Both the position numbers and the translations under genes were made by a program. Below, piece by piece: positions 32,788 to 60,461 of a stretch of 64,000 bases of DNA; the first letter of the stretch is position 1; every line of letters begins with the position of its first letter. A model generated the notes under the pieces. That model ran no database searches, was not told the DNA's origin, and saw only the letters and a program-made list of their open reading frames with translations. Source of the stretch: an uncultured bacterium (GTDB lineage Bacteria > Acidobacteriota > Thermoanaerobaculia > Multivoradales > JAHZIX01); NCBI GenBank assembly GCA_965368975.1, contig CBDUPA010000007.1:1-64000 (forward strand). The letters are read 5' to 3'.

Positions 32788-33642
32788 TTGAAGAAGTCCT
32801 TGGCGGTCTCGACCACCACCGTGATCTTGGCTTTGGTTCTCGTTTCGCTTGATTCCGCGTCCGGCCAGGCGCGAGCTGCTGCTCCGGTCGGCTTCGTGCT
32901 GGAGGTGGAAGGGAACTGGTTGCTGGAGTCCGAGAGTCAGGCGCTGAGCACCGTCAAGGTCGGTCAAGCGCTTTCTGCCGATGGGCGACTCATAGCGGCG
33001 AGCGAACCCGTGCAGGCACGGATCGTCGTGGCCTACGCGGACGGCCGGCGAGCTGTCTACACTCGGCCTGGCACCTACACCGAGCCGATCGACCTGCGTC
33101 TCAAGGCTCCAAAATCTGTATCTGGCTTCGAACGGCTGCTGGCCGCCTGTGCCCGTCTGCTGCACGGCCAGCCCGAACAGTACGCGGCGACGCTCGCACG
33201 TGGAGAGAGTCGAGTTCAGCTGCAGGAAGCGGTTCTTGCTGCTAGTTCTGACGGCGTCGACCTTGCACTGCTGTTTACCGCGACCGTGGATGTCGGCTGT
33301 GCCTTGCGGCTTGAACAGCTGGTATCGACGACAGATTTGCAGTGGGAACTTCGTGGCCAAACTCCTGCGGACTCGGCGTGTCCGCCAGTCGTGGATCTGG
33401 GGCCCGGGCTCTACCGTGCCACTTGGTTGCAGGCCGACGAAGAGGCCTACAGCCGAGTCCTACGACCTACGCTGGTAGCGGCCTGGTTCGTGGTAGCCCC
33501 CGAGGCTCAGCAGCCGGACTTGTTGGAACGCTTCGAGTGGTTGCAGGCGCAGTTGGCCAAAGTCGAAGATGAGGCTATCAGCCGTAGCTGGTTGCGAGCA
33601 TCGCTGCGTCAGCTCTGGCAGGAGGCAGGCGCCCAGCGATGA
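32788..33642 (+). CDS. Secreted hypothetical protein, first gene of the CHASE2 operon
   Basis: GGAGG RBS then TTG. Signal peptide KKSLAVSTTTVILALVLV; stop overlaps the next ATG (ATGA). Confidence 0.65.
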   Translation: MKKSLAVSTTTVILALVLVSLDSASGQARAAAPVGFVLEVEGNWLLESESQALSTVKVGQALSADGRLIAASEPVQARIVVAYADGRRAVYTRPGTYTEPIDLRLKAPKSVSGFERLLAACARLLHGQPEQYAATLARGESRVQLQEAVLAASSDGVDLALLFTATVDVGCALRLEQLVSTTDLQWELRGQTPADSACPPVVDLGPGLYRATWLQADEEAYSRVLRPTLVAAWFVVAPEAQQPDLLERFEWLQAQLAKVEDEAISRSWLRASLRQLWQEAGAQR

Positions 33643-34832
33643 CTCTCTCGCTGCCGCAGCGTAGCCCGACGACCTGGCGCTACTGGCTCAAGATCACGCT
33701 GATTCTCCTGACGTTCAGCCTGGTAGTGACGGTACTGCAGTTCTTCGGCTGGCTGACACCCTTCGAGTCCACATCGCTCGACACCTTCTTCGCCCTCAAC
33801 AGCGTGCGCTCGCCGTCGCAAGACGTGGTACTCGTCGTGATCAACGACGGTGATTACACGGAGCTGTTCAACGGTACCAGCCCGCTGGCGCCGGCAGCGG
33901 TCCAGCGCTTGGTGGAACGGCTGGCGGCTGCCGGCCCGCGGGCGATCGGCGTGGACCTCGATACCTCGGCACCTGCCTGGGCCGGATACCAGCCAAGCCT
34001 CGACGTGCCGGTTGTCTGGGCGCGCGAGGCGACGTTTGTAGACGGTGAGATCGAGTTCCAGTTCCGCGTGCTGGGCCGCGACAACCCGGATGTCCCCCGG
34101 GGAATCGCCGCGGCCCCGGTCGACGCCGACGGCGTGATCCGGCGCTACAGCTGGTACTTCGATAGTGGCGGCACTCGCGCTCCTTCGTTTGCTGGCGCCA
34201 TCCTGGCGGCCGCTGGTGAGACACGGGCCGGCCAAGAGGCAACCCGGCTCAACTTCTTCGGCGACCGCTACGAGATCCCCCGTTTCAACGCTTCAGACGT
34301 TCTGGCGCTCGAGGCCGATGGCGACTGGCAGCGCTACTTGCAAGATCGAATCGTCCTGATCGGCGCAACCTTTCGAGCTTCTCGCGACGTCTACCGCGCG
34401 CCCTGGAGCGGCGAGGATCAGCAATGGTTCGGCGTCGAAGTGATGGCCAACGTGGTCGAGGCGGAACTCCGCGGCGCCGGCATCAGGCCGATCAGCTTCG
34501 TGTCGATGATGCTGATCGAACTCCTGGTTGGCCTGAGTATCGTCTGGATCTGTCATCACTTGTCTCTCGGTCCCGCGCTGCTTCTCAACATCGGCGTGGC
34601 CTCGATGGGAGCGCCGCTTGCCAGTCTGCTGGTGTTCTCGACCTTTGCCTACTGGGGGAGTTTCCTGCCTTTCCTGACCGCTACGCTTCTACAACAGCTG
34701 TACGAGCAAGCGATCGAGTACCGTGAGCTGTGGCGGCGGGCATTGGACGCTGGAGAGCGGGGTTCGGAATCTGATCTGGATCTACCGCCGCAATCAACGG
34801 AGCCGATCGAGCGAAAGGCCGACGATGCTTGA
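33639..34832 (+). CDS. CHASE2-domain membrane protein with no output domain
   Basis: DVVLVVIND, AIGVDL, DADGVIRR, DRIVLIG, GVEVMAN, followed by three TM segments and only a short tail. Confidence 0.85.
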   Translation: MTLSLPQRSPTTWRYWLKITLILLTFSLVVTVLQFFGWLTPFESTSLDTFFALNSVRSPSQDVVLVVINDGDYTELFNGTSPLAPAAVQRLVERLAAAGPRAIGVDLDTSAPAWAGYQPSLDVPVVWAREATFVDGEIEFQFRVLGRDNPDVPRGIAAAPVDADGVIRRYSWYFDSGGTRAPSFAGAILAAAGETRAGQEATRLNFFGDRYEIPRFNASDVLALEADGDWQRYLQDRIVLIGATFRASRDVYRAPWSGEDQQWFGVEVMANVVEAELRGAGIRPISFVSMMLIELLVGLSIVWICHHLSLGPALLLNIGVASMGAPLASLLVFSTFAYWGSFLPFLTATLLQQLYEQAIEYRELWRRALDAGERGSESDLDLPPQSTEPIERKADDA

Positions 34833-36909
34833 GGGGCGCCACAGTCTCCTGGTAGGACTCCTGCTCTGGACGCTCACGAGCACAGCCTTACCGGCTCAGC
34901 AGAGCGTGCAGAACCGGCGCACATCGATTGTCGACCCCAAAGGCGAGCAGGTTCTGCTTTATGAAGGCAGCTACGCCTTGGTCCTCGGTGTCAGTCGCTA
35001 CACGAACGGCTGGCGTTCTTTGCCGGGCGTGCGGGACGATGTCGACGCCGTGGCCGAGGTCTTGCGCGAACACGGTTTCGAGGTCACCGGGCCGGAGGTG
35101 GACCTGGATAGCCGTCAACTGAAGGCGGTGATCGAGTCCTTCGTCAACGGTCCTGGCGCCCAGCCCGGAGCCCGGCTACTGATCTACTTTGCCGGCCATG
35201 GGGCGACGCTGCGGAATGACTCTGGCGGCAGGCCCCTCGGCTAACTCGTTCCGGCGAACGCCCCGAAACCAGAGGCGGACCCGGCCATTTTCCGGAGCCG
35301 GGCGCTGTCCATGCTGGACATCGAAGTCTTCGCGCGCAAGATCCAGTCCCGGCACGCGCTGTTCGTCTTCGACAGCTGCTTTGCCGGCACCATCTTCGAG
35401 GTGATGCGCAGCGGCCAGGTGCCAGAGTACGTCAGCGACAGCACGGCGCGGCCCGTGCGGCAGTTCATCACTTCTGGCGAGGCGGGAGAGGAAGTCCCGG
35501 ATCGCAGCCGATTCGCCAGGGTCTTCGTCGAGGCGCTGCGCGGCGAAGTTCCCGAGGGTGACGGCTATCTCACCGGGCGAGAACTGGGCCAGCATCTCTA
35601 CAAGGTGGTGAGCGAGCAGACCCGCGGAGCCCAGCATCCGCAGCACGGAAAGCTGTTGGATGAAGTGCTCGGGCGAGGTGACTTCGTCTTCGAGCTGCCG
35701 CGGCAACCAGTGGCCCCGCCTCCGGACACGGACGTGCTGGATCTCGAAGATCTGAAAAGGCGAGGTGAGCGCGAAGCCGCGGAGGCCGAGTGGCAGTCGT
35801 GGCAAGCGCGGATGTTGCAGGACTTTCGCGAGGTCGAGGAGTTCGAGGGTTCGAATGTTTCGCCGCTGTTGAAGGCCCAGGCTTGGGAGCGCTTCCAGGC
35901 GTCCTACGAGGCTGACAATCCCTACTCTGAAGAAGATGACGCCAGCCGTCGTCGAGCCGCGGCGCGGGAAGCGCACTGGCGCAGCCTGGGCGCAGCCGCC
36001 GAAGAGCTGCCGCCCCCACCACCGCCGGTCTTGAGACCGGGTGCTGAGATGCCGGAGCCGCCCCTTCCGGGTATGAGTTTCCGCTACATTCCTCCTGGGA
36101 CCTTTCAGATGGGCAGCCCAGACGACGAGCCGGGGCGTGACAGCGACGAGACCCGCCACTCGGTGACGCTGACCCGCGGCTATTGGATGGGCGAGACGGA
36201 GGTTACGCAGGCGCAGTGGCAGGCGGTGATGGACAACAACCCTTCCTACTTCCAGAATTGCGGTGCGGCTTGTCCGGTGGAGCAAGTCACTTGGTTTGAC
36301 GCCGTGGTCTTTGCCAACGCACTGTCTCGCAAGGCGCGGCTAGATGAGTGCTACGAGTTGACGGGGTGTACCGGAGCGCCCCAGAAGTGTGATTCCGTGA
36401 CATTCCGGGGGTTGGATTGCCGAGGCTACCGCCTGCCGACCGAAGCGGAGTGGGAGCGGGCGGCCCGCTCGGGGACGGACACCGCCATCTACACGGGCAA
36501 CCTGACGCTTCGCGGGCGGAACAATGGTCCTGAGCTGGACCCGATCGCCTGGTATGGGGGCAACAGCGGCGTAACCTATTCCGGCGGTCTTGGCTGCTCT
36601 TCTTGGCCGGAAAAGCAGAAGGCAGCTGATACCTGCGGCACGCATCCGGCCGGCGAGAAGGCTGCGAATTCATGGGGCTTGCGGGACATGCTGGGCAATG
36701 TTTGGGAGTGGACATCAGATTGGTCAGCCGGTATCGAAAATGCGGCCGTGCGGGACCCGCTTGGCCCTGAAGAAGGCTCGTACCGGGTGCAGCGCGGTGG
36801 CAGCTGGTTCATCAACGCCAGGAACTGCCGCGCGGCGAATCGCTACTTCGGCTCGCCGGGCTACCGCGTCAGCTTCGTCGGTTTTCGTCTTGTGAGGACG
36901 GCCCCTTAG
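34825..36909 (+). pseudogene. Exported caspase-like (C14) + FGE-sulfatase/CLec protein, interrupted by an in-frame TAA at 35242-35244; putative DGR target
   Basis: Signal peptide; YALVLG...YFAGHG...G*LVP...FDSCFAG all in one frame. FGE domain: FQMGS, EVTQAQW, YRLPTEAEWE, DMLGNVWEW, RGGSW, GFRL. Confidence 0.85.
36775..36909 (+). repeat. Putative DGR variable region VR1
   Basis: 135 nt; differs from 38632-38766 at 15 positions in 10 codons, all non-synonymous, 9 of the 10 codons being NNC in both copies. Confidence 0.8.
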
Positions 36910-37053
36910 GCTTCGCGCTTTCACCCTCTTACGCTTCGTGGGTGGGGGCGCACCTTACTCGGAGCGCAGTGAGCGCAGGGGTAGAGCTAGAGCCCCTGGC
37001 GAGCGAAGCGTAGAGGAAGGTACGCTGCCAAGTTGCACTACACTATCCAGACA

Positions 37054-38766
37054 ATGACAGAGCAGATTCGGAATTCTCTCCGTGCTTTCTTGCAGGGTCG
37101 CTCCATCCTGAGTGGTCACAGGCGTTTTGCTGCAGTCCTGGTGGTCCTGCTGCAGCTCGTCGCGATCTCTGAGCCAACTGCTGCCCAGGTGGGGGCGAGT
37201 GACTCCGCCGCTCTTCCCCGCACCGCCCTCGTCATCGGCAATGCCGCCTACTCCGAAGCCCCTCTTCGTAACCCCGCCAACGACGCCAACGACGTGGCCT
37301 CCATGCTCACCGAACTGGGGTTCGACGTCACTCAGCACACCAACCTCGATCACAAGGCCATGGAAGACGCGATCCGTGCTTTCGGTTTGCGGTTGCGCCG
37401 AGGTGGTGTCGGGCTGTTCTACTACGCTGGGCATGCCGTGCAGGTCGATGGCCGCAACTACCTGCTGCCGCTCCGTTCCGGTATCAAGACGAGGACGGAC
37501 GTCAAGTACCATTCGGTGGATCTCGGGTTCCTGCTCGACGCGATGGGTGATGCCAACAACTCGATGAACCTGGTGATCCTGGACGCCTGTCGCAACAATC
37601 CCTTCCGCTGGTACCGGGGTGGCAACCGTGGTCTAGCTCAGACGCCGGCACCTATGGGGACGCTGATCGCCTTTTCAACCGCACCCGGATCCGTGGCCGC
37701 TGATGGGGATGCGCGCAACGGCGTCTTCACTCAGCATCTGCTCGATTCTCTACAGCTGCCGGGCCTGCAGATCGAAGAGGTGCTGAAGCGGACGCGCGCT
37801 GCGGTGATGACGGCGACGAGCAGGCGGCAGGTTCCGTGGGAGAATTCCTCGATCGTCGGAGAACTGGTTCTTCGCCCCGGTGCGATCAACCCGCCCCCGC
37901 CCCCACCACTGCGGGCGGGAGACGTCATGCCGAACCCGCCACCCGGTATGCGTTTCCGCTACATTCCTCCCGGGACCTTCCAGATGGGCAGCCCGTCCGA
38001 TGAATCCGGGCGAGATGACGATGAGACACGTCACTCGGTGATGCTGACCCGCGGCTACTGGATGAGCGAGACGGAAATCACGCAGGCGCAGTGGCAAGCG
38101 GTGATGGGCAACAATCCCGCCTATTTCCAGAACTGCGGTGAGACGTGCCCGGTGGAGCAAGTCAACTGGTTCGAAGCCGTGACCTTCGCTAACCGGCTTT
38201 CGGCCCAGGAGGGTTTGCAACCCTGTTACGTACTGGACGAATGTACCGGCGACCTTGGGGGCGGCTGTACGGGCGAGCGGAGCTGGTCGTGCACGGGTGA
38301 CTACGCGTGCAGCGGGGTCCGGCTCGGCAGCGCGACTTGCTCAGGCTATCGCTTGCCGACCGAGGCGGAGTGGGAACGGGCGGCCCGCTCGGGGACCGAG
38401 ACTGCAATCTACACTGGTGCACTGACGCTGGGCGACGGTGGCAAGGGACCCGAGCTGAAGACCATCGCCTGGTTCAGCGGGAACGCTGGTGGTAGTACGC
38501 ACCCTGTCGGTCAGAAAGCATCGAATGCCTGGGGCCTACGAGACATGCTGGGCAATGTCCGGGAGTGGACGTGGGACTGGTACGGTAGCTTGGGCAGTGT
38601 TGCGACGACCGATCCCCTGGGTCCCGTACAAGGCTCGCTCCGGGTGCGCCGCGGTGGCAGCTGGAACTTCAACGCCAGGTACTGCCGCGCGGCGAATCGC
38701 TTCTACGGCTCGCCGGGCTACCGCACCCGCAACGTCGGTTTTCGTCTTGTGAGGACGGCCCCTTAG
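37054..38766 (+). CDS. Exported caspase-like (C14) + FGE-sulfatase/CLec protein; putative DGR target
   Basis: ALVIGN..Y..PLRNP.NDA, YYAGHA, LDACRNNP, QVPW; poly-Pro linker; FGE domain motifs. Start uncertain (37033 or 37054). Confidence 0.9.
   Translation: MTEQIRNSLRAFLQGRSILSGHRRFAAVLVVLLQLVAISEPTAAQVGASDSAALPRTALVIGNAAYSEAPLRNPANDANDVASMLTELGFDVTQHTNLDHKAMEDAIRAFGLRLRRGGVGLFYYAGHAVQVDGRNYLLPLRSGIKTRTDVKYHSVDLGFLLDAMGDANNSMNLVILDACRNNPFRWYRGGNRGLAQTPAPMGTLIAFSTAPGSVAADGDARNGVFTQHLLDSLQLPGLQIEEVLKRTRAAVMTATSRRQVPWENSSIVGELVLRPGAINPPPPPPLRAGDVMPNPPPGMRFRYIPPGTFQMGSPSDESGRDDDETRHSVMLTRGYWMSETEITQAQWQAVMGNNPAYFQNCGETCPVEQVNWFEAVTFANRLSAQEGLQPCYVLDECTGDLGGGCTGERSWSCTGDYACSGVRLGSATCSGYRLPTEAEWERAARSGTETAIYTGALTLGDGGKGPELKTIAWFSGNAGGSTHPVGQKASNAWGLRDMLGNVREWTWDWYGSLGSVATTDPLGPVQGSLRVRRGGSWNFNARYCRAANRFYGSPGYRTRNVGFRLVRTAP
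38632..38766 (+). repeat. Putative DGR variable region VR2
   Basis: Partner of VR1; no synonymous differences between the two copies. Confidence 0.8.
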
Positions 38767-38973
38767 GCTTTGCGCTCTCACCCTCTTACTCTTTGCCGGG
38801 TGGGGGAGAGCCCCTGACCCGGAGCGCAGCGAGCAGAGGGCGAGCCAAGAGCCCTGGCGAGCGGAGCACAGGGCCAGGGGCTCGGCGGGTGGTCTTCTCT
38901 GGAGCGCCAGTCCAAGGGACCCGTCCCTCAGGAGTGAGTGAGGCCGTGCTGCCATGCCGAAATTGCCCCTCCC

Positions 38974-41424
38974 TCACTCTTGCCGCAACACCTCCACCGG
39001 ACTCACCGAAGTAGCCCGCCGCGCCGGCAAGTAGCACGCCGCCAACGCGACGCCGGCGAGCAGTAGCGGTACCGCGACGAACGTCACGAGATCCAGCGTC
39101 TCGACGCCAAAGACCATCGACGCCATCAGCTTGTGCAAGAAGGCGGCTGCGGCGATGCCGAGCACCAAGCCCATGCCAGCCAGCTTCATGCCCTGACCCA
39201 GCACCAGCTTCAAGATGTCCCCGTTCAGGGCACCTAGCGCCATCCGGATCCCCAGCTCCCTGCGACGCTCGGCGACCTGGATGGACAGCACGCCGTAGGT
39301 GCCGACAGCTGCAAGAATCAACGCCAGCACAGCGAACAAGCCGAACAGAAACGTCAGGAAGCGTGGCTCGGCCAGGGTGCCGCGGAAGGTTTCGGTCAAG
39401 GGACGCAGGCGCTGGACGGGCAGGGCCGGGTCGAGGTCGCGCAGGGTGGTGCGGACTTGGGTGGCGAGGCTGGACGCGGGGAGCGACGAGCGCAGGAGGA
39501 CGTGCATTTCCTTGGGCACGAAGACCGGCGGGACGCTCTGCGCGGCTTGCGGGTAGGGGATGAAGACTTCGGTGCCGGGGGCCTGGTCGAGGCCGGCTTG
39601 TTTCATGTCCTTGACCACACCGACGATGGTGCGCCAGGGGAAGGCGTCGCCGAGGTTGATTCTCAGGTTGCGTCCCAGCGGGCTCTCGTCGCCGTAGAAG
39701 GTGCGGGCGAGGCTTTCGTTGACTACCACGACTTGCGGCGCTTCGGCATCGTCTCCCGGTTCCAGGTAACGGCCTTCGACCAGGGGGATGCCGAGGGTTT
39801 CCAGGGCGCCGGGGCTGGCGTACTGCCAGTAGTCGATCGACCCGGGCGGGGTATCTTCGCCGCTCAGGTCGAGACCTTCGAACTGCGTGGTGTTGCCTTC
39901 GGCGTCGCGCTGCGGCGGCAGGCCGAAGAGGACGGCGACGCCTTCGACACCGGGGAGTGTTTCCAGGCGCGTTTGCAGGCGGCTGAAGAAGTCGATGGCT
40001 TCGGCGGGGCCGGGGTAGAGGTGGTCGGGCAAGGGCAGCTGGAAGCTGGACAGGGGGGCGGGGTCGAAGCCGGCGTCGACGTCCATGAGATTCCAGAAGC
40101 TGCGCAGCAGCAGGCCGGAGCTGATCACCAGCACGACGGCGAGCGCGATCTCGACGACGACGAGGGAGCGCTGCAGGACGTGCCGTGAGCTGCTGCCGCC
40201 GCGGCCGCCGCCTTCTTTGAGCGCACCGCTGAGGTTGCGGCGCAGGTGCAGGGCGGGGGCGAGGCCGAAGAGCAGGCCGGTACCGAGGCCGAGCAGCAGG
40301 GTGACGCCGAGGACGGTGGCGTCGAGACCGACTTCGCCGGAGCGGGGCAGGCCGTCGGGGTGGATGGCCAGCAGGGTCCGCAGGCCGATTCCGGCGAGGA
40401 CGAGGCCCAGGACGCCGCCGAGCAGACCGAGGACGGCGCCTTCGGTGAGGAACTGGCGGATCAGGCGTGCGCGTACGGCGCCGATGGCCGAGCGCATGGC
40501 GATTTCTTTGCGCCGGCTCTGCGCGCGCACCAGCTGCAGGTTGGCGACGTTGGCGCAGGCGATCAGCAGCACGCCGAGGACGGCGCCGAGAAGGAGCCAC
40601 AACTTGCTGCCCACGTCGCCCACGACGTCCTCGTGCAGGGTGTCGAACCGGAAGGGGTGGTTGCTGGCGTCGAGTTGGTGCTGCTCGCCGTTCTCGGCCC
40701 AGCGCGCGAGCAAGGTGTCGAGTTCGGCGTGCATCTGCTCCAGGCTGACGCCGTCGGCCAGGCGGCCGATCAGGTAGTAGCCGTGGGCGTGCCGCGGACC
40801 GGGGTTGCTGCGGTCGAGCGCGAGGGGTTGGTAGACGTCGAAGCGTTCGTTGCGGATCTGGAAGTTTTCGGGCATGACGCCGATGATGGTCACCGGGTTG
40901 CCGTCGATCTGGACGTTCTGGCTCAGGATGTCCGGGTTGCCGGCGAAGGCGCGCTGCCACAGGTCGTAGGACAGCACCACCACCGGCTCGCCGCCGGGCG
41001 CGTCCTCGGCGGCTTCGAAGGTGCGACCGAGGAGGGCGGGGCGCGCGAGGGCTTCGAACAGCTCGTGCGACACTTGAGCGGCGTCGACGCGCAGGGGACG
41101 ATCGCCACTGGTCAGGTTGACGGCGCCGGTGGTGTAGGCGCCGAGGGCGGCCCAGGAGGTGCTGTCGCGCTCGTAGTCGACCCACTCGGGGCCGGACACC
41201 CAGAACTTGTCGAAGCCGAGGCTTTCGATCTTGGTGGTCACCAGGACCAGGCGTTCGGCCTCGGGGAAGGGGAGGGGGCGCAGCATCACGTGGTAGACGA
41301 CGCTCCAGATGGCACTGGTGGCGCCGATTCCCACGGCCAGGGTCAGCAACGCGACGGCGGTGAAGCCGGGGTTGCGCATCAGGCTGCGCAGGCTATAGCG
41401 AAGGTCTTGCAGCAGGGTGCTCAT
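38974..41424 (-). CDS. ADOP-family duplicated ABC permease (MacB/FtsX-like)
   Basis: QDLRYSLRSL..NPGFT, LLIACANVANL, EIAMRSAIGA, VVVEIALAVVL, ELGIRMALGA, PARRAT. Confidence 0.9.
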   Translation of the reverse strand: MSTLLQDLRYSLRSLMRNPGFTAVALLTLAVGIGATSAIWSVVYHVMLRPLPFPEAERLVLVTTKIESLGFDKFWVSGPEWVDYERDSTSWAALGAYTTGAVNLTSGDRPLRVDAAQVSHELFEALARPALLGRTFEAAEDAPGGEPVVVLSYDLWQRAFAGNPDILSQNVQIDGNPVTIIGVMPENFQIRNERFDVYQPLALDRSNPGPRHAHGYYLIGRLADGVSLEQMHAELDTLLARWAENGEQHQLDASNHPFRFDTLHEDVVGDVGSKLWLLLGAVLGVLLIACANVANLQLVRAQSRRKEIAMRSAIGAVRARLIRQFLTEGAVLGLLGGVLGLVLAGIGLRTLLAIHPDGLPRSGEVGLDATVLGVTLLLGLGTGLLFGLAPALHLRRNLSGALKEGGGRGGSSSRHVLQRSLVVVEIALAVVLVISSGLLLRSFWNLMDVDAGFDPAPLSSFQLPLPDHLYPGPAEAIDFFSRLQTRLETLPGVEGVAVLFGLPPQRDAEGNTTQFEGLDLSGEDTPPGSIDYWQYASPGALETLGIPLVEGRYLEPGDDAEAPQVVVVNESLARTFYGDESPLGRNLRINLGDAFPWRTIVGVVKDMKQAGLDQAPGTEVFIPYPQAAQSVPPVFVPKEMHVLLRSSLPASSLATQVRTTLRDLDPALPVQRLRPLTETFRGTLAEPRFLTFLFGLFAVLALILAAVGTYGVLSIQVAERRRELGIRMALGALNGDILKLVLGQGMKLAGMGLVLGIAAAAFLHKLMASMVFGVETLDLVTFVAVPLLLAGVALAACYLPARRATSVSPVEVLRQE

Positions 41425-41576: not shown

Positions 41577-60461
<18,885 letters not shown>

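Follow-up and report, generated by a model that had tools for sequence, protein, structure and literature searches.

Paired caspase-lectin genes with 3' ends apparently written by a diversity-generating retroelement and probably orphaned in an Acidobacteriota-like genome

Two adjacent caspase-lectin genes in the DNA stretch analysed here (64,000 nt in length, hereafter the window) end in variable regions (VRs) that carry the footprint of a diversity-generating retroelement (DGR), a known targeted mutator, and their cognate template (TR), Avd and reverse transcriptase (RT) are absent from the genome assembly. We infer a shared template, its loss and present inactivity: judging from sequence comparison, both 3' ends were probably written by a DGR from one template, and the VRs are most likely orphaned and frozen since the core of their lineage is missing from the assembled genome. 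Fusions of a caspase to a lectin whose tip can be rewritten are regarded as sensor-effector proteins of bacterial conflict systems, and the present pair extends them to an Acidobacteriota-like genome.

The features of the locus are listed in Table 1. Gene 1 encodes an N-terminal hydrophobic (signal-like) segment, a Peptidase_C14 caspase, a linker and an FGE/C-type-lectin domain, with Pfam E-values of 1.2e-10 for Peptidase_C14 in the N-terminal piece and 8.2e-48 for FGE-sulfatase in the C-terminal piece. Its caspase domain is divided between the His and Cys halves by an in-frame TAA that the earlier sequence-only reading does not mention. On visual comparison this TAA sits at the Tyr of a caspase motif retained by gene 2 (GRNYLLP); it may be a true nonsense mutation or an artefact of assembly. 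The intact gene 2, whose ORF opens at a TTG and whose likely start is the ATG at 37054, matches Peptidase_C14 over profile positions 2-228 of 233 (E 1.1e-36) and FGE-sulfatase at E 4.9e-46. The AGH and DAC motifs seen by eye in its translation form a predicted His/Cys catalytic dyad. The FGE-sulfatase match reaches the last residue in both genes, and the best solved relative of the gene 2 lectin domain is the DGR protein TvpA (PDB 2Y3C; E 1.2e-47, residues 33-273), whereas true FGE enzymes match this domain at only about 1e-15. As an N-terminal hydrophobic segment, judged by eye, is also present in gene 2, the caspase bearing the lectin tip is apparently exported. The end of the upstream CHASE2-domain gene overlaps the likely ATG of gene 1, and the two genes therefore probably form one operon.

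Table 1. Position, strand and basis of the features discussed (window coordinates)
Feature	Position	Strand	Basis or remark
CHASE2-domain gene	33639..34832	+	ORF list; Pfam CHASE2 E 5.8e-32; directly 5' of gene 1
Gene 1, caspase-FGE/lectin, TAA-broken	34825..36909	+	Translation, Pfam
In-frame TAA in gene 1	35242..35244	+	Translations of both genes compared by eye
Variable region 1 (VR1), gene 1 3' end	~36773..36913	+	Pairwise alignment
Conserved 3' box, copy 1, CTTTCACCCTCTTAC	36918..36932	+	8 nt after gene 1 stop
Gene 2, intact caspase-FGE/lectin gene	37033..38766	+	ORF list, Pfam
Variable region 2 (VR2), gene 2 3' end	38630..38770	+	Pairwise alignment
Conserved 3' box, copy 2, CTCTCACCCTCTTAC	38775..38789	+	3' of gene 2

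VR1 and VR2 are identical outside 15 sites in 10 codons, and VR1 closes with the invariant IMH-like GTCGGTTTTCGTCTTGTGAGGAC and the stop codon at 36907-36909. The sequence-only reading had listed these 15 nucleotide differences within the last 135 nt, and pairwise alignment with codon-aware comparison reproduced the list exactly (tac/ctc, cag/cgc, ttc/aac, atc/ttc, aac/tac, tac/ttc, ttc/tac, gtc/acc, agc/cgc, ttc/aac). Its further statements on the pattern of change were confirmed as well. All 10 changed codons are non-synonymous; 14/15 differences lie at codon positions 1-2, compared with 89/186 upstream (p=7e-4); and silent changes are absent from the tract (0/34 same-residue codons) yet present upstream (59/145; Fisher p=2.7e-7), the upstream set consisting of 213 aligned FGE codons, 145 of them same-residue. 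The changes affect 10 of the 44 codons of the tract, five of them at two bases, and are distributed as 7, 7 and 1 over codon positions 1, 2 and 3. One copy has an A at 12/15 differing sites, compared with 74/186 upstream (p=0.005), and this A is in gene 1 at six sites, in gene 2 at six and in neither at three. The 6/6/3 split rules out that one VR templated the other, and self-templating without a TR is likewise ruled out, as A is enriched (12/30 bases at variable sites) and not depleted. Identity between the genes is ~60% in the 75 nt 5' of the tract and 77% in the 117 nt 3' of the stop. The varied residues fall in a C-terminal segment that is hypervariable across homologues. The lack of silent change also indicates that rewriting last took place recently compared with the divergence of the paralogues, which speaks against frozen VRs, as an active element would also fit.

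An independent four-copy family in another genome (G304) has 13 variable codons with 24 variable sites, all 24 at codon positions 1-2 and 20 of them including A. The 10 variable codons of the window all lie within these 13 (41 codons, p=2.6e-7).

Both window genes terminate in GTGAGGAC, the stop and then a 15-nt box, with the invariant end ...GGTTTTCGTCTTGTGAGGAC plus box in both copies. The box is made up of two to four CCTYTTAC-like repeats and occurs, within one mismatch, at two places only in its own genome. Copy 1 falls in the 5' arm of a DNA hairpin predicted at 36915-36951, and the single-sequence hairpin is strong 3' of gene 1 (z -2.8) but not 3' of gene 2 (z -0.5). RNAalifold, run on sets of 10 and 41 VR flanks, detected no helix with covariation; the sole pairing, GAGG/CCYC, was invariant, no pair having changed at both positions, and a structured element is therefore unproven. 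An Rfam scan of 36600-39100 yielded no match at E<=1.

In the genome contig collection, 57 stretches contained a GTGAGG...box pattern, with 58 matches overall, and 42 distinct matches lie after an FGE-type ...GFRLVR end, in other genomes and other phyla. Box matches in three genomes were rejected as lineage members for not being beside FGE genes (that in G123 on inspection, those in G093 and G383 judged from the matched string alone) and were treated as chance or another element; a reversed-pattern control gave 2 matches in 401 genomes. Five box loci are complete cassettes in the order box, RT, TR, with an Avd gene detected in three of them, between RT and TR. The TR-VR mismatches of these five loci fall at TR adenines in 17/18, 15/16, 16/19, 25/28 and 20/25 cases, and of the 15 columns that vary in the window, 10, 11, 13, 13 and 14 are A in the respective TRs. 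A conserved RNA motif flanks the TR in the complete loci. In all five, the homology between TR and VR does not extend past GTGAG and stops short of the box, which is on the VR only, and the invariant end differs slightly between VR (GTGAGGAC) and TR (GTGAG(T/C)AC) in related loci. An RT is present in 6/57 box-bearing stretches, for each of which <=8 kb of DNA was fetched. Two further genomes (G148 and G160) have box-tagged kinase-FGE genes and neither a DGR-type RT nor a strong Avd, and their paralogues show ordinary silent divergence. These comparisons suggest that the window VRs belong to a cross-phylum DGR lineage with the box after its VRs and not after its TRs, which makes the box a candidate for the discrimination of target from template in this lineage. 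Taken together, the footprint, the overlap with the G304 family and the TR adenines in the five loci support the earlier proposal of DGR-type variable regions derived from one adenine-bearing template.

The same proposal placed that template elsewhere in the genome, acting in trans. The assembly (7.13 Mb, 59 contigs, 99.3% complete) yielded no cognate TR by blastn, AAC-codon scan, TR profile or TR-flank profile; in particular, blastn of the VRs against the whole genome did not return the anticipated copy with A at the variable sites beside a DGR RT or avd. No convincing cassette remnants were found around the window genes, and the assembly contains no Avd besides the sole bAvd at C16 and no RT in the RT-then-TR layout of the box lineage. 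The five RT matches in the genome comprise two long ones (637-663 aa), taken to be group II intron-type, and three of DGR type (C16, C15 and C9). DNA searches of 60 relatives and 400 phylum genomes found no TR; the best matches were 68-73% identical, and the seven of nine matches outside the own genome that were aligned are all ordinary FGE C-termini, not A-rich templates. Exact TR and variant VR patterns (N at the variable sites) had 0 matches in public genome, metagenome and viral contig collections, the viral collection being scanned with two exact patterns. With three resident DGRs that do not match and no other TR found, a template acting in trans from within this genome is not supported, and on present data the claim of current rewriting in trans fails by the refuting condition that the sequence-only reading itself had set, as neither the genome nor its close relatives yielded a TR. 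The part of the earlier reading that has the tips written by a DGR stands.

The three DGR-type RTs lie in cassettes with adjacent NACHT-lectin targets and with either a TR different from the window or none. The C16 cassette has the order avd-TR-RT and VR flanks without the box, and its RT is 36-43% identical to box-lineage RTs. The C15 and C9 cassettes include an HTH gene, and C9 is without the ~350 nt which hold the TR in its C15 paralogue. Besides, a gutted cassette at C2:345976-346690 has lost the TR and most of the RT, leaving HTH residues 1-70 and RT residues 260-337, and lies between two VRs with an equally clean footprint (none of their 16 differences is silent). The decay at C2 and C9 was counted in favour of core loss. 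The genome shows every stage of DGR turnover, i.e., intact cassette, TR-less cassette, gutted cassette and orphan targets. Contig ends fall in repeated RadC/integrase islands, one of them within 2 kb of the C15 cassette, so that in the 59-contig assembly a cassette could be unassembled or unbinned, a point against frozen VRs.

We hypothesize that the shared TR carried adenines, mostly in AAC codons, at the 15 now-differing sites. Error-prone reverse transcription of the template RNA would have placed random bases opposite these adenines, and the cDNA would have taken the place of the terminal ~140 nt of both genes, as far as the invariant end. Ten residues would thereby have been recoded within the hypervariable segment of DGR lectins. 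With the RT/TR core of the lineage absent from the assembled genome, the VRs would be frozen orphans, and the locus would be in decay, as marked by the nonsense codon of gene 1. A clean VR footprint between paralogues is no proof of current activity.

On the other hand, the two genes might be live remote targets, rewritten in trans by an avd-RT-TR core in unassembled or unbinned DNA (e.g., a multi-copy mobile island) or in some cells, a possibility that we regard as real but doubtful. The perfect homogenisation of the scaffold would fit it, as would the assembly breaks at repeated islands close to the C15 DGR, and the low proportion of box stretches with an RT nearby suggests that box-tagged genes remote from their core may be common. 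Moreover, the available part of PMC10907252 describes Thiohalocapsa PB-PSB1 targets without a reference TR match that had intact RT and TR in long-read structural variants. However, three other DGR cassettes, TRs included, are well assembled, the nearly complete assembly contains no further Avd, DGR-type RT, TR or TR-flank motif, gene 1 has a stop codon, and the dead C2 cassette indicates that an orphaned pair can look equally clean. It is unlikely that the box is a target-recognition tag of a cross-phylum DGR lineage and the window pair its still-live remote targets, served by an RT-TR core on an unassembled mobile island or in part of the population. If so, any lectin gene with GTGAGGAC and the box would be rewritable in trans, and this portable address label would explain the reach of a single DGR to dispersed caspase-, kinase- and NACHT-lectin sensors.

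Explanations that dispense with a DGR of the box lineage fare worse. That no retroelement was involved, gene conversion having homogenised the tandem 3' ends while the ten codon differences were maintained or produced by diversifying selection at residues that contact the ligand, is suggested by the adjacency of the paralogues, by homology running 117 nt beyond the stop and by the hypervariability of the C-terminal segment, but we consider it very improbable: a conversion tract would copy the interspersed variable codons too, identity drops to 77% in the flank immediately beyond the tract, half of the changed codons have two substituted bases although silent changes are absent from the other 34, and neither the adenine bias (12/15 vs 74/186) nor the coincidence of the differences with TR adenines of homologous complete DGRs fits it. 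Rewriting in trans by a resident DGR (C16, C15 or C9) is hardly credible, although the genome has three DGR-type RTs, a bAvd at C16 and, at the same locus, an RT related to those of the box lineage. For a template to rewrite a target, the two scaffolds must agree wherever the template is not adenine, and the resident TRs depart from the window scaffold at many such sites; blastn of the window VRs against the genome gave no match to any resident TR, and C16 has neither the RT-then-TR order nor the box. This option is thus refuted as far as sequence tells, and orphaned VRs of a lost core are the reading that we retain.

Treponema denticola TvpA (2Y3C) shares with the window genes a C-type-lectin fold of the FGE type and a VR within the final ~45 residues, and differs in having no caspase domain. 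Seven non-adjacent targets of the Treponema DGR are reported in the part of PMC5758913 available to us; they match a TR in their genome, whereas the window VRs are without one in the assembly. The cyanobacterial orthocaspase-CLec proteins, as presented in the accessible sections of Vallota-Eastman et al. 2020 (PMC7517822), show the same graft, with a caspase-type peptidase N-terminal to a DGR-type CLec and a 3' VR. The same sections describe 'remote VPs', i.e., paralogues dispersed away from the RT, which belong to a different phylum and were assigned by TR identity, while no TR was found for the window genes.

In Thiohalocapsa PB-PSB1, according to the available text of Dore et al. 2024 (PMC10907252), many DGRs diversify CLec sensors whose fusion partners are NACHT/STAND, kinase, TIR and caspase-like domains; some DGR loci are incomplete and some targets have no reference TR match. 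The NACHT-FGE, SIR2-NACHT-FGE, Mrr-NACHT-FGE and SEFIR/TIR-kinase-FGE genes also encoded in our genome mirror this sensor range. The PB-PSB1 reads in that text revealed ongoing diversification and variants with intact cassettes, whereas the window pair was read from an assembly; the string 'Acidobacteri' has 0 occurrences in the main text of that article.

The DGR of Bordetella phage BPP-1 (mtd VR, avd, TR, brt), as outlined in the same available part of PMC5758913, follows the same logic of adenine-specific rewriting of a 3' VR, with another lectin subtype and in a phage context. It shares an IMH-like invariant end that differs slightly between VR and TR, plus a VR-only element just downstream. 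In the window this downstream element is a T-rich box of CCTYTTAC-like repeats and not simply a GC-rich inverted repeat of the BPP-1 type.

The 3' tracts of two neighbouring caspase-lectin genes, gene 1 and gene 2, differ at 15 nucleotides in 10 of 44 codons, with a distribution of 7/7/1 over codon positions. The sequence-only reading had described these differences as free of silent changes, which do occur upstream, and pairwise and codon comparisons confirmed its description in all details. Silent changes affect none of the 34 same-residue codons in the tract but 59/145 upstream (p=2.7e-7), 14/15 differences in the tract versus 89/186 upstream lie at codon positions 1-2 (p=7e-4), and adenine is present in one copy at 12/15 versus 74/186 sites (p=0.005). 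The rest of the tract is identical, from ~36773 to 36913 in the gene 1 copy; on its 5' side the genes share ~60% identity, and the 117 nt past the stop codon, with no other occurrence in the genome, share 77%. Because the adenines at differing sites split 6/6/3 between the copies, neither variable region (VR) can be the template of the other.

Both genes belong to a group of four co-oriented genes at 32.7-38.8 kb, and their proteins carry, as judged by eye, an N-terminal hydrophobic segment. Gene 1 is split by an in-frame TAA (35242-35244) that separates the His half of its caspase domain from the Cys half and, when translations are compared by eye, aligns with a Tyr of the caspase motif kept in gene 2; either it is a nonsense mutation that makes gene 1 a pseudogene, or the assembly is wrong here. 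Downstream, an 816-aa minus-strand ORF (38974-41424) resembles by eye a MacB/ADOP-type permease, and a single open frame of 6294 codons (41577-60461), in which condensation, adenylation and carrier-like sequence recurs, looks by eye like a giant non-ribosomal peptide synthetase. The assembly comprises 7.13 Mb in 59 contigs (completeness 99.3%). The start of the contig (250-2036) encodes a RadC-like JAB protein and a phage-type integrase with Arm DNA-binding and central domains. Relatives of these, 75-84% identical, occur on 12 or more further contigs, often at their ends, an indication that integrative elements present in several copies interrupted the assembly.

Features at the window locus and related DGR loci (G000, the genome holding the window; C, its contigs)
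Feature	Position	Content
ORF	32.7-38.8 kb region	Unassigned; first of the four co-oriented genes
CHASE2 gene	33639-34832	
Gene 1	34825-36909	Peptidase_C14 and FGE-sulfatase across its two pieces (Pfam)
Gene 2	37033-38766, likely start ATG 37054	Peptidase_C14 and FGE-sulfatase (Pfam)
Box	36918-36932 and 38775-38789	CTYTYACCCTYTTAC, part of two to four CCTYTTAC-like repeats
Complete DGR	G000:C16:89226-97259	NACHT-FGE, bAvd, TR (92586-92716), RT, second NACHT-FGE
DGR locus	G000:C15:2002-11523	Mrr-NACHT-FGE, RT, TR/HTH, SIR2-NACHT-FGE
C15 paralogue locus	G000:C9:135426-144607	About 81% identical; target domains annotated on C15 only
Dead DGR cassette	G000:C2:345304-347370	Two convergent FGE genes, 345.3-347.4 kb
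Third TR-less VR-like pair, clean	G000:C13:178221-178868 and G000:C1:68898-69689	
Older TR-less VR-like set	G000:C12:230305-231057, C12:233505-234257, C14:31584-32336	

The proposal that both tracts are VRs of a diversity-generating retroelement (DGR) is well supported by three independent lines of evidence, namely the fold, the variable codons of an unrelated genome in the phylum (G304) and a flank common to complete DGRs. Among solved structures the lectin domain is closest to the DGR variable protein TvpA (E 1.2e-47), ahead of true formylglycine-generating enzymes, which match at E about 1e-15. In G304 a homologous 123-nt tract occurs four times (contigs C53, C79, C305 and C318), each time in an FGE gene tagged by the 15-nt box that also follows the window genes. 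All 24 variable sites of these copies fall at codon positions 1-2, with adenine among the bases at 20, and the codons variable in the window are all (10/10) among the 13 of 41 that vary in G304 (p=2.6e-7). The 470-contig G304 assembly contains no template repeat (TR) matching this scaffold. Its sole DGR-type RT, on contig C182, is paired with a different TR/VR.

Both window genes end in GTGAGGAC and the stop codon, with the box CT[T/C]TCACCCTCTTAC 8 nt on; nowhere else in the genome does the box occur. Searching one genome per species for GTGAGG followed after 15-35 nt by the box returned 58 matches in 57 stretches. Judged by their record titles, these belong to Acidobacteriota, Bdellovibrionota-type, Moduliflexus-type, Verrucomicrobiota, Bacteroidota, Chloroflexota and other MAGs, and 42 distinct matches directly follow an FGE-type ...GFRLVR end. 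Six stretches include a DGR-type RT, four of them with bAvd, an accessory gene, and in five of the six a TR was located downstream of the RT. These five complete loci share the order target-VR-box, RT, TR; three of them showed an Avd gene separating box and RT. Their TR-VR mismatches lie mostly at TR adenines (17/18, 15/16, 16/19, 25/28 and 20/25). Homology between TR and VR ends at GTGAG: VRs have GTGAGGAC at this point, TRs GTGAG(T/C)AC. At the 15 window-variable columns these TRs carry adenine at 10, 11, 13, 13 and 14. The window tracts are thus typical VRs of the DGRs with a box after the VR (the box lineage), their varying sites being that lineage's template-adenine sites. The box is conserved behind VRs in several phyla and lacking from the five TRs; on sequence comparison it is a candidate for a cis element specific to the VR. 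It matched no Rfam family and showed no covarying helix, only an invariant GAGG/CCYC pairing, and single-sequence prediction gave a strong hairpin after gene 1 only.

The further proposal, of a template acting in trans from elsewhere in the genome, was not borne out by blastn, AAC scan, TR profile or TR-flank profile: the assembly lacks the cognate template. Searched against the genome by blastn, the window VRs returned only each other and FGE paralogues at 61-67%, and the sole match of an AAC-rich frame scan was the C16 TR. A profile of the five box-lineage TRs ranked the C16 TR first, followed by both window VRs and after them other VRs; one of the conserved TR 3' flank had no match. No template was found in relatives, phylum genomes or public collections, nor any DGR cassette remnant near the window. 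The genome has one bAvd and five RT matches, three DGR-type and two long (637-663 aa), the latter taken to be putative group II intron-type. No TR at the three DGR-type RT loci matches the window scaffold. Among 5.8 billion protein sequences no relative comes closer than 55-56% identity, which leaves the source organism otherwise unsampled in that collection.

The other DGR loci of the genome differ in preservation. Mismatches fall at TR adenines in 22/27 cases for the first C16 VR (VRa), in 22/37 for the more diverged VRb, and in 10/11 at C15. In the C9 cassette the RT is intact, but the ~350 nt containing the TR at C15 are missing, leaving its VRs without a local template. At C2, where the minus-strand gene is annotated Metallophos-NACHT-FGE, the 715 intergenic nt retain remnants of HTH residues 1-70 and RT residues 260-337 only; its VR pair, with 16 differences (codon positions 10/6/0) and 0/33 silent, is as clean as the window pair. 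The C13/C1 pair differs at 16 sites over 132 nt, none of them silent and 11/16 with an adenine, and the C12/C14 trio, including a SEFIR/TIR-kinase-FGE and a kinase-FGE gene on C12, has 20-33 differences with 3-6 silent.

The window VRs are orphan targets in this assembly, which lacks their cognate core (RT and TR). We lean towards loss of the core: cassettes have decayed in this genome, as in C9 without its TR and the gutted C2, and since the C2 and C13/C1 pairs are clean without a TR, perfect-scaffold pairs evidently persist here once orphaned, which, together with the gene 1 stop codon, favours this reading. That the core instead exists, either left out of assembly or binning or polymorphic within the population, seems less likely; in its favour, contigs end within repeated RadC/integrase islands, one adjoining the C15 DGR, and PB-PSB1 is a precedent for reference genomes lacking cores that some cells keep (PMC10907252).

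By position, the box matches the VR-only element downstream of the IMH in BPP-1 (PMC5758913). The passages of that study on VR-only elements do not mention the box; they describe a GC-rich inverted repeat as VR-only element in 127/372 DGRs. Orthocaspase-CLec DGR targets and remote targets have already been published (PMC7517822), as have multi-DGR genomes in which lectin sensors of NACHT, kinase, TIR and caspase type are diversified and some loci are incomplete (PMC10907252). The orphan pair is therefore a further case of a known type.
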